Made by a program: the position numbers and the translations under genes
Assembly: GCA_025055595.1 (NCBI GenBank)
Contig: JANWWU010000066.1
Span: 11,147-75,146, forward strand
From: Planctomycetota bacterium
Lineage (GTDB): Bacteria; Planctomycetota; UBA11346
Direction: 5' to 3'
Length of the DNA: 64,000 nt
Shown here: positions 22,860 to 29,997 of the stretch, one piece after another
Position numbering within the stretch: position 1 is the first letter of the stretch
How the letters are laid out: each line of letters opens with the position of its first letter
The notes under the pieces: generated by a model
Databases searched by the model: none
Seen by the model: the letters and a program-made list of their open reading frames with translations, nothing else
What the model was told of the DNA's origin: nothing

Positions 22860-23936
22860 TTGCCGCTCCCCGTGGTCAGCGCTGCCCAGCCCCAACTTGC
22901 CAGACCCCGCTCCCCGGCGCGGCGCGCGCGCTGGGCGCCGATCCTTGCGGCCTTGCGCGACCAGCCCTGGCGCGAGCTGCTTGCAGCCAGCGAGCTGCTC
23001 GAGGCGCTCGCCGCCCAGGGCCTGGAGCTCAGCGAGCGCACGCTGCGCCTGCACTGCGCGGAGCTCGGCGCCGCGGGCCTGATCGAGCGCGTCGGCAAGC
23101 GCGGCTACCGCCTGACGCCCGCCGGCCTCGAGGCGGCGCGCGCGCTCGCCGTCCAGCGCCGGCTCGGCACGGTCGCGGCGCGGATGGAGAGCATGGTCTG
23201 CCAGCTGACCTTCGATCCCCGCCGCCGGCAGGGCCTGGCCTCGATCAATGCCTGCGTCGTCCGCCGCTCGCTGCTGCCGACCCTGCTCGCCGACCTCGAG
23301 GCGGTGTACGAGAGCGGGCTGGCGGTCGGCGACCGCGTGCTGATCGCCGAGCCCGGCAGCGAGGTGCTCGGGCGACGGGTCCCGGAGACCTGCGTCGGGA
23401 TCGGCACCGTCTGCTCGCTGACCATCGCCGCCACCCTGCTCGCCGGCGGGGTGCCGACGCAGCTGGTCGGCGGGGCCCTGCTCGGCATCGTCGAGCGCCG
23501 CCCCGCGCATCTGCTCGAGCTCGTCCGCTACGACGCCAGCTCGCTCTCGCCCAACGAGCTGTTCATCCGCGCTCGCCTGACCAGCGTGATCGACGCCGCG
23601 CGCTGCGGCGAGGGCCGGATCACCGCCAGCCTGCGCGAGCTGCCGATGTCGGCCCTGCCGCGGCTCGACGAGGCGCTCGCCGCCTGCCGCGAGGCCGGTT
23701 TGCACGGCGTGCTCGCCGTCGGCAAGCCCGGGCAGACCCTGCTCAACGCCCCGCTCGGCGAAGGCCGGGTCGGCCTGCTGCTCGCCACCGGCCTCAATCC
23801 GCTGGCCGGCCTCTGGGAGCGGCACCTCGTCTCCGCCAGCGATCCCGACACCGCCAGCCCGATGGTCGGGCCGGCGGAGTGGCAGTCGCTGATCCCGGTG
23901 CGCGAGCTGCGCGCCCGCCTCGCCCGTTTCCTGTAG
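22860..23936 (+). CDS. NrpR-like nitrogen repressor-family regulator (winged-helix + DUF128/NRD-like domain), tentative
   Basis: Track ORF. The N-terminal segment [39 protein letters not shown] resembles the NrpR wHTH (…ISERTVRYHL…ERVGxRGxxIT…). It lies immediately upstream of gltBD, with an 8-nt gap. The family call is from memory of NrpR sequences and was not searched. Confidence 0.45.
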
Positions 23937-23943
23937 GAAGTCC

Positions 23944-28494: not shown

Positions 28495-28515
28495 ACCCTC
28501 TGCCAAGGAAGCGCC

Positions 28516-29997
28516 ATGGGCGACCCCAAAGGTTTCATGATCCACACCCGGCGGGCTCCCAAGTACCTGCCCGTCGAGGAACGGCTGCGCAATCACGACG
28601 AGCATGTCGAGATCCTGCCGGAAGAGACGGTCCGCACCCAGGCCAGCCGCTGCATGGACTGCGGGGTGCCGTTCTGCATGAGCGGCTGCCCGCTCGGCAA
28701 CCTGATCCCGGAGTGGAACGACCTCGTCTACCGCGGGCGCTGGAAGGAGGCGCTGGAGGTCCTGCACGCGACCAACAACTTCCCCGAGTTCACCGGCCGC
28801 GTCTGCCCCGCGCCCTGCGAGAACTCCTGCGTCCTCGGCATCAACGAGCCGCCGGTGACGATCAAGCTGCACGAGGTGTCGATCGTCGACAAGGGCTTCG
28901 AGATGGGGTGGATCCGCCCCGAGCCGCCGCCGAAGCGCAGCGGCAAGCGCGTCGCGATCGTCGGCAGCGGCCCCGCCGGCCTGGCCTGCGCCCAGCAGCT
29001 CAACCGCGCCGGCCACACGGTGACGGTGTTCGAGAAGCACGACCGCGCCGGCGGCCTGCTGATGTACGGCATCCCGCACTACAAGCTGCGCAAGGAGAAG
29101 GTGCAGCGCCGCATCGATCTGCTCGCCGCCGAGGGCATCGCCTTCCGCCTGCGCTGCCATGTCGGCGTCGATGTCAGCTTCCAGGAGCTGCGCCGGGCCT
29201 TCGACGCGATCGTCATCTGCACCGGCGCCGAGCAGCCGCGCGACCTGCAGATCCCGGGCCGCGAGCTCGACGGCATCCACTTCGCGATGGAGTACCTGCC
29301 GCAGTCCAACCGCGCCAACTGGGGCGATGCCGACATCGCCGCCCTGCACCCGAAGCGGCAGCGCATCTGGGCCGAGGGCAAGCGCGTCATCGTCATCGGC
29401 GGCGGCGACACCGGCAGCGACTGCATCGGCACCGCGCTGCGCCAGGGCGCGGTCAGCGTCGTCAACTTCGAGCTGCTGCCGGCCCCGCCCGAGCGGCGGG
29501 CGCCGAACAACCCCTGGCCGCAGTGGGCGCGCATCCGCCGCATCTCCTCGAGCGTCGAGGAGATGCTCGCGCGCGGCGGCGATGTCTACTACAGCATCTC
29601 GACCAAGGCCTTCCACGGCCAGGACGGCCGGGTCTGCGGGCTGACCACCGTCGACCTCGACTGGTCGAGCGGCAAGCCGGTCGAGAAGCCGGGCAGCGAG
29701 CGGCGCTGGGACTGCGACCTCGTCCTGCTCGCGCTCGGCTTCCTCGGGCCGCGGCGCCCCGGGCTGCTCGAGCAGGCCGGGGTCGCGCTCGACGAGCGCG
29801 GCAACGTCCGCACCGATCCGCAGACCCGCATGACCTCGGTCGAAGGCGTGTTCGCCGCCGGCGACGCCCGGCGCGGGCAGTCGCTCGTCGTCTGGGCGAT
29901 CAGCGAGGGCCGCGAGATCGCGCGCGCCGTCGACGAGTGGCTGACCGGCGAGCCGAGCCTGCTGCCGGCGGTGCGCCTCGATCCCTTCCAGTACTGA
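28516..29997 (+). CDS. gltD: glutamate synthase small subunit (NADPH-dependent, 4Fe-4S + FAD/NAD binding)
   Basis: Track ORF. GxGxxG motif (IVGSGPAGL) and Cys clusters (CMDCGVPFC…CP) typical of GltD. Confidence 0.95.
   Translation: MGDPKGFMIHTRRAPKYLPVEERLRNHDEHVEILPEETVRTQASRCMDCGVPFCMSGCPLGNLIPEWNDLVYRGRWKEALEVLHATNNFPEFTGRVCPAPCENSCVLGINEPPVTIKLHEVSIVDKGFEMGWIRPEPPPKRSGKRVAIVGSGPAGLACAQQLNRAGHTVTVFEKHDRAGGLLMYGIPHYKLRKEKVQRRIDLLAAEGIAFRLRCHVGVDVSFQELRRAFDAIVICTGAEQPRDLQIPGRELDGIHFAMEYLPQSNRANWGDADIAALHPKRQRIWAEGKRVIVIGGGDTGSDCIGTALRQGAVSVVNFELLPAPPERRAPNNPWPQWARIRRISSSVEEMLARGGDVYYSISTKAFHGQDGRVCGLTTVDLDWSSGKPVEKPGSERRWDCDLVLLALGFLGPRRPGLLEQAGVALDERGNVRTDPQTRMTSVEGVFAAGDARRGQSLVVWAISEGREIARAVDEWLTGEPSLLPAVRLDPFQY

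Follow-up and report, generated by a model that had tools for sequence, protein, structure and literature searches.

A bacterial NrpR-like protein encoded directly upstream of glutamate synthase genes in Planctomycetota, and the palindrome that is probably its operator

NrpR has to our knowledge been studied only in methanogens, and we know of no account by which nitrogen regulation in the Planctomycetota or in many uncultivated anaerobes is other than essentially unmapped. 2-oxoglutarate, the established effector of the archaeal protein, is also a substrate of glutamate synthase (GOGAT). Bacterial homologues were reportedly noted in a 2007 survey by Lie and colleagues; our literature search found no paper on NrpR in Planctomycetota or other bacteria. 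The operator of the methanogen protein has the consensus GGAA-N6-TTCC, as quoted in PMC2723118. We describe here a 64-kb stretch of Planctomycetota DNA (hereafter the window; G+C 70-78%) in which a gene for an NrpR-like protein immediately precedes gltB and gltD. This gene belongs to the NrpR family, its company with gltBD is conserved, and, judging from comparison of related loci, the palindrome in front of it is probably the operator of its own product. The genes concerned are the following.

22872..23936, plus strand: nrpR-like gene, with an alternative start at TTG 22860; winged helix, two linker helices and one NrpR regulatory domain (NRD)
23944..28494, plus strand: gltB, glutamate synthase large subunit, 1516 amino acids (aa), four Pfam domains with E-values of 1e-82 to 1e-169
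28516..29997, plus strand: gltD, glutamate synthase small subunit, 493 aa, Pfam Fer4_20 and Pyr_redox_2
21821..22792, plus strand: KAS-like gene (short beta-ketoacyl synthase-like protein), 323 aa, Pfam ketoacyl-synt N and C domains

The nrpR-like gene encodes a genuine NrpR-family protein, consisting of a winged helix and one NRD. Residues are numbered here from the open reading frame start at 22860, which gives 358 aa. The Pfam profile NRD1_2 (PF01995) matches in one copy at residues 103-321, covering 217 of its 238 positions (E=1.4e-55, 188.5 bits), and HTH_12 (PF08461) matches residues 41-91 with 23.1 bits, above its cutoff of 21.4 (E=7e-5). The NRD of M. jannaschii MJ0159 (PDB 3NEK) is matched at E=4e-13 by the single sequence and at E=2.4e-40 by a profile of 21 sequences. 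In the AlphaFold2 (AF2) model, with a mean pLDDT (predicted local distance difference test score) of 87, a helix-helix-helix-hairpin winged helix at residues 19-85 (helices 19-33, 43-52 and 59-71; beta strands 75-78 and 82-85) is followed by two linker helices and an alpha/beta domain, the NRD, at about residues 103-345. When this model was compared with the PDB by Foldseek, 3NEK ranked first (E=1e-16, template modeling (TM) score 0.83-0.85), and the N-terminal part gave local matches to the DNA-binding winged helices of MntR, DtxR and MarR. An NrpR-like winged helix and a single C-terminal NrpR regulatory domain were what the earlier note on this DNA had proposed from the letters alone, and both proposals are borne out by the profile and structure matches. 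Identity to the archaeal NRD is about 21-22%. The motifs GTxC (with the cysteine C185), SLxPxExF, AxxRE and GGxNP are nevertheless common to MJ0159 and the bacterial proteins, which is consistent with a conserved ligand site; in M. maripaludis NrpR the cysteine equivalent to C185 reportedly takes part in the response to 2-oxoglutarate. The tandem NRD pair of the M. maripaludis type is absent, a single NRD stretch being found in the 358 aa. Hundreds of homologues share this two-domain architecture and several of them carry the JGI label 'NrpRI'. A search for M. maripaludis NrpR seeded with MJ0159 gave bacterial single-NRD proteins only.

A scan of one genome per species yielded at least 554 related stretches, in groups that include Planctomycetota, Thermodesulfobacteriota, Omnitrophota and Dehalococcoidia. 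The best 80 loci (L001-L080) were taken for comparison and one more, L081, was looked up separately; each locus was read over 8-10 kb to either side. The 27 closest loci (L001-L027) are all from Planctomycetota, with nrpR-like proteins 50-67% identical to that of the window. The order nrpR-like, gltB, gltD is found in all 24 loci with enough downstream sequence, with gltB 72-80% and gltD 75-82% identical in the syntenic loci. Independently called genes with precomputed Pfam domains give the same picture in L081, where ketoacyl-synt and NRD1_2 genes are followed 10 nucleotides (nt) later by GltB and then by GltD. The association with gltBD on which the earlier note had built is thus well founded. 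In the window 7 nt separate the nrpR stop codon (TAG 23934-23936) from the gltB start codon (ATG 23944), one fewer than had been counted before. Throughout the closest clade this gap is 7-45 nt, so that there is no room for a separate gltB promoter, and a scan of 22600-24100 in the window found no terminator-like site.

In the region upstream of the nrpR-like gene, the following elements were read from the sequence, together with one at the nrpR-gltB junction.

22851..22865, no strand: CGGCAATCATTGCCG, the proximal palindrome and putative operator, a perfect 7-1-7 repeat 6 nt upstream of GTG 22872
22787..22800, no strand: CGGtAAGTTTGCCG, a distal operator-like palindrome, CGGCA-N4-TGCCG with one mismatch, overlapping the TAA of the KAS-like gene
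22811..22816, plus strand: TTGACA, a putative -35-like box, with the proximal palindrome some 40 nt downstream
23935..23940, plus strand: AGGAAG, a Shine-Dalgarno-like element for gltB, overlapping the nrpR stop codon

The earlier note had suggested a search for palindromes of the GGAA-N6-TTCC type upstream of the gene; the exact form is absent, and a closely related palindrome lies within the region that it indicated. The proximal palindrome has a GGCA-N5-TGCC core at 22852-22864, and CGGCAATCATTGCCG is both the sole exact CGGCA-N5-TGCCG and the sole GGCAA-N2-4-TTGCC site in the window. In all 26 Planctomycetota loci with upstream sequence, CGGCA-N5/6-TGCCG stands 3-17 nt upstream of the start codon, exactly in 24 and with one mismatch in 2. 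A second copy, mostly with N4, lies near the stop codon of the KAS-like gene and is exact with N4 in L001-L005, L018, L019 and L081. Alignment of 10 upstream regions shows conservation limited to the half-sites and to a TTG(A/C) box, the flanking non-coding sequence having diverged; the TTG is invariant in these regions and always lies 39-40 nt from CGGCA. If the TTG box is a -35 element, as we infer for TTGACA, the palindrome would be centred near +10, a position of the repressor type.

Several other palindromes were considered and set aside. TTCCTGTAGGAA, which spans the nrpR stop codon (23928-23939), is not kept in L001-L005 and is best read as the ribosome-binding region of gltB. CGGCA-N6-TGCCG also has exact matches in the window at 1630, 17188 and 21201; these have GC-rich spacers, lie in coding sequence and look like chance occurrences, as do similar palindromes with GC-rich spacers within coding sequence of the genes that flank the related loci. 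L081 has the same proximal and distal layout and, in addition, a third pseudo-site with a GGAA half-site inside the coding region (10016-10029). This pseudo-palindrome, (C/A)GGAAA-N3-TGCCG, is also seen in L003, L006, L014, L015, L020 and L026, in the N-terminal coding region where the encoded peptide is 'ENLP'; its GGAA half-site is like that of the methanogen operator, and what is conserved here may be a binding site in the DNA, not the peptide sequence.

The box is not confined to the Planctomycetota. With upstream defined as within 450 nt of the nrpR-like gene, GGCAA-N2-4-TTGCC occurs in L001-L027 at 1.38 sites per kb upstream compared with 0.004 per kb elsewhere. In the 53 loci from other phyla (L028-L080) the corresponding densities are 2.9 per kb (69 sites) and 0.009 per kb (6 in 646 kb), and 38 of these loci carry 1-4 copies upstream of the nrpR-like gene. 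The proteins in this second set, from Thermodesulfobacteriota, Syntrophorhabdaceae, Omnitrophota, FCPU426, Chitinivibrionales and others, are 32-41% identical to that of the window. All box-bearing loci have just one gene in common, the nrpR-like gene, and its neighbors vary. The box persists across phyla in a way not explained by descent of non-coding sequence, and the nrpR-like gene is its sole constant partner; in comparative genomics, such a pattern usually marks a transcription factor that regulates its own gene and the site to which it binds. Expressed as (C/T)GGCA-N4-6-TGCC(G/A), the box departs from GGAA-N6-TTCC chiefly in one base of the half-site. As a separate observation, the Thermodesulfobacteriota typically have N6 at the distal and N4 at the proximal site, and the trend in Planctomycetota is reversed. 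A second nrpR-like paralogue is found a few kb from the first in L070 (13503-14501) and L080 (11714-12625, minus strand), and in L070 an extra GGCAA-N2-TTGCC stands at 15185, with the paralogue some 680 nt downstream.

The neighbors in the other phyla are also informative. Clustering and Pfam annotation of representatives identify the divergent neighbor in 20 loci as a protein with a stand-alone Glu_synthase (FMN) domain and in 13 as glutamate dehydrogenase (GDH), and GlnA, GltD-like, amidotransferase-like and PPDK_N proteins are encoded nearby. 2-oxoglutarate is a substrate common to all of the linked enzymes. These neighbors indicate that nrpR-like genes of bacteria as a rule keep company with genes for enzymes that lead from 2-oxoglutarate to glutamate, and as far as gene order can tell, the Planctomycetota layout repeats this pattern with the genes in one direction. 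Control of nitrogen assimilation by the nrpR-like proteins would accord with this genomic association, which embraces gltBD (24/24) as well as the Glu_synthase-domain, GDH and GlnA genes.

These results are most simply accommodated by an autoregulated nrpR-gltB-gltD unit, whose repressor acts at CGGCAATCATTGCCG and is released by 2-oxoglutarate, a reading to which we assign a probability of roughly 0.55. A dimer or higher oligomer of the nrpR-like protein would most likely bind CGGCAATCATTGCCG, just downstream of the -35-like box, with a weaker second site about 65 nt upstream. The bound protein would repress its own promoter and hence the single nrpR-gltB-gltD unit. When nitrogen is scarce 2-oxoglutarate would accumulate and bind the regulatory domain, and the protein with its effector would then leave the DNA, permitting the synthesis of glutamate synthase, which in turn consumes 2-oxoglutarate. 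We infer, in other words, binding of the palindrome by the protein, repression, 2-oxoglutarate as the effector and co-transcription of the three genes. The KAS-like gene is probably outside the regulated unit.

A number of observations weigh against this picture and must be set beside it. The canonical GGAA-N6-TTCC has no match in the 64-kb window. A strict sigma-70 scan of 22600-24100 found no full promoter, the -10 element being weak. Half-site spacing is not what one would expect of a rigid dimer, for it varies among N4, N5 and N6 within single promoter regions of L028-L080. The methanogen nrpR gene is reported not to be nitrogen-regulated (PMC9765008), and autoregulation would be a departure from this. 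A wider regulon finds no echo in the window, where there is no second strong site, nor are there further nitrogen genes among the neighbors annotated by Pfam over about 30 kb of it. Finally, gltB may be controlled separately in a more distant Planctomycetota subclade, because there the nrpR-gltB gap widens to 190-400 nt and contains a conserved hairpin of about 100 nt, for which RNAalifold predicts 40 pairs, with compensatory double changes at 7 of these. The copies of the hairpin are located as follows.

L012, 4998-5102: spacer hairpin
L007, 3020-3125: spacer hairpin
L008, 3626-3730: spacer hairpin
L009, 1069-1174: spacer hairpin
L011, 9087-9191: spacer hairpin

This hairpin has no Rfam match and is absent from the window; it may serve as an attenuator or processing element for gltB. 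At the 5' end of gltB in L011 (9071-9429) there are also GGGGTCC runs and three copies of GTCGCACGCCCA.

The alternative that deserves the most attention accepts the palindrome and the control of nrpR-gltBD but supposes that the protein answers to another metabolite, such as glutamine or glutamate, or that it is an activator or a dual regulator. At the low identity to the archaeal NRD ligand specificity could drift, and a regulator encoded beside GOGAT or GDH genes could equally sense their products; the retention of the four NRD motifs and the sharing of 2-oxoglutarate by all the linked enzymes argue for the archaeal effector instead. The weak promoter elements are typical of activated promoters, and multiple sites with differing spacings would suit a complex mode of control, but the proximal site, some 40 nt downstream of the TTG box and beside the start codon, is placed as expected for a repressor. 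We consider this alternative rather unlikely.

It is also conceivable, although we judge it improbable, that the palindrome is not an NrpR-like operator at all but a hairpin in the 5' leader RNA, a sigma-54 promoter or a site for another factor, and that the adjacency of the genes is merely an inherited order. The location of the site near the start codon, in the presumed 5' leader, would suit a hairpin, but as RNA the one in the window is no more stable than shuffled sequence (z-score -0.12), there is no Rfam match, and the half-sites are invariant across phyla rather than covarying. There is a superficial likeness to the GG and GC elements of sigma-54 promoters, the consensus of which is TGGCAC-N5-TTGC, with 6 nt from GGCA to TTGC; a promoter of this class is excluded by the spacing, since GGCA and TTGC are 4 nt apart in the window, 2-5 nt apart in the relatives, and never 6. 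An operator is likewise favored by the copy number of the sites, from 1 to 4, by their location, in many cases ahead of the presumed promoter or between divergent genes, and by the way they track the nrpR-like gene whatever its neighbor. As for the idea that the protein is a generic winged-helix protein with no relation to NrpR, the modest HTH_12 match and the weak scores of other winged-helix families are what it can call upon, but it is refuted by the NRD1_2 match, by the agreement with 3NEK in both sequence and fold, and by the two-domain architecture of the homologues, so that its probability is negligible.

Turning to the gene models, the nrpR-like open reading frame, the peptides quoted earlier (LSERTLRLH...) and the downstream genes were all found at the positions previously given for them. 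The GC3 of this frame (G+C at third codon positions) is 0.93, typical for real genes of the host genome. GTG 22872, which gives 354 aa, is most likely the start codon rather than TTG 22860, because the closest homologues start 3-17 nt past the conserved palindrome. In the public record the same protein, assigned to a Planctomycetota metagenome-assembled genome, is named 'DUF128 domain-containing protein' and given 327 aa, with its start at TTG 22953; this model loses the first predicted helix together with I28 and L29, residues that are invariant among the homologues. GltB contains all of its expected domains (GATase_2, Glu_syn_central, Glu_synthase and GXGXG in Pfam), with the CGVAF motif coming after a short propeptide, and across both subunits every domain of the GltBD family is matched, at E-values of 1e-24 to 1e-169. 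In 21 Planctomycetota loci, and in L081, the KAS-like gene comes directly before the nrpR-like gene; it is called as 425 aa in L081, compared with 323 aa in the window. Farther upstream is a suf-type operon for Fe-S cluster assembly (15867-20982), comprising genes for a NifU-like protein, a SufC-like ABC ATPase, the SufBD core and the class-V aminotransferase SufS, after which comes an AraC-family regulator (20986-21819). Downstream are an RNase HII-like gene and genes for HisRS, SpoIIE/PP2C phosphatases and UvrA. Intergenic tandem repeats were seen in L019 (404-1462), with five copies of GCATCACCACCGA and four of GCCGCAAAG.

It is quite possible, and we put it forward tentatively, that the bacterial NrpR-like proteins as a whole form a widespread family that senses 2-oxoglutarate or nitrogen status, present in at least 554 species-level genomes, with a cross-phylum operator, YGGCAA-N2-4-TTGCCR, that is homologous to GGAA-N6-TTCC of methanogens, and with autoregulated control of GOGAT and GDH as its central task; the window would then show the form that this system takes in Planctomycetota, with regulator and targets joined in one nrpR-gltBD operon. 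This analysis yields a cross-phylum candidate operator. If the proposal is correct, a regulator regarded as archaeal extends to the bacterial transcription apparatus, and 2-oxoglutarate releases the repressor of an enzyme that consumes it, which is a simple logic of substrate induction. The precise candidate operator and the defined target operon make the system directly testable in vitro, and with the shared box regulons could be predicted for hundreds of metagenome-assembled genomes.

Comparison with the known systems places the locus as follows. With M. maripaludis NrpR it shares an HTH_12-type winged helix and the NRD of PF01995, a link to central nitrogen assimilation genes, and a palindromic operator, putative here, with GG-A...T-CC half-sites 4-6 bp apart, often in at least two copies. 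It differs in having one NRD rather than two; in its half-site, GGCA in place of GGAA, and the spacing, N5 here and N4-N6 across the family; in its bacterial host with sigma-70-type transcription; in its putative targets, its own promoter and gltBD as opposed to nif, glnA and glnK-amtB; and in the autoregulation implied here. The combination of a winged helix and one NRD is that of the NrpRI type of M. mazei, and the NRD superposes on that of MJ0159, which itself lacks a DNA-binding domain, in spite of the low identity; the Planctomycetota clade carries an extra N-terminal extension of about 20-60 aa, and no NRD-only partner protein resembling NrpRII was seen in the window. Also akin are the bacterial DUF128 or 'NrpR regulatory domain-containing' proteins of Thermodesulfobacteriota, Syntrophorhabdaceae, Omnitrophota and others, which have the same architecture, the same YGGCAA-N2-4-TTGCCR boxes upstream and a link to glutamate-forming enzymes. 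Their genes are usually divergent from a stand-alone Glu_synthase-domain gene or from gdhA, whereas in Planctomycetota the gene is co-directional and nearly contiguous with classical gltBD and has the KAS-like gene before it. The locus is not a new kind of system but a bacterial variant of NrpR, with a candidate operator variant of its own, probable autoregulation and glutamate synthase as its likely target.

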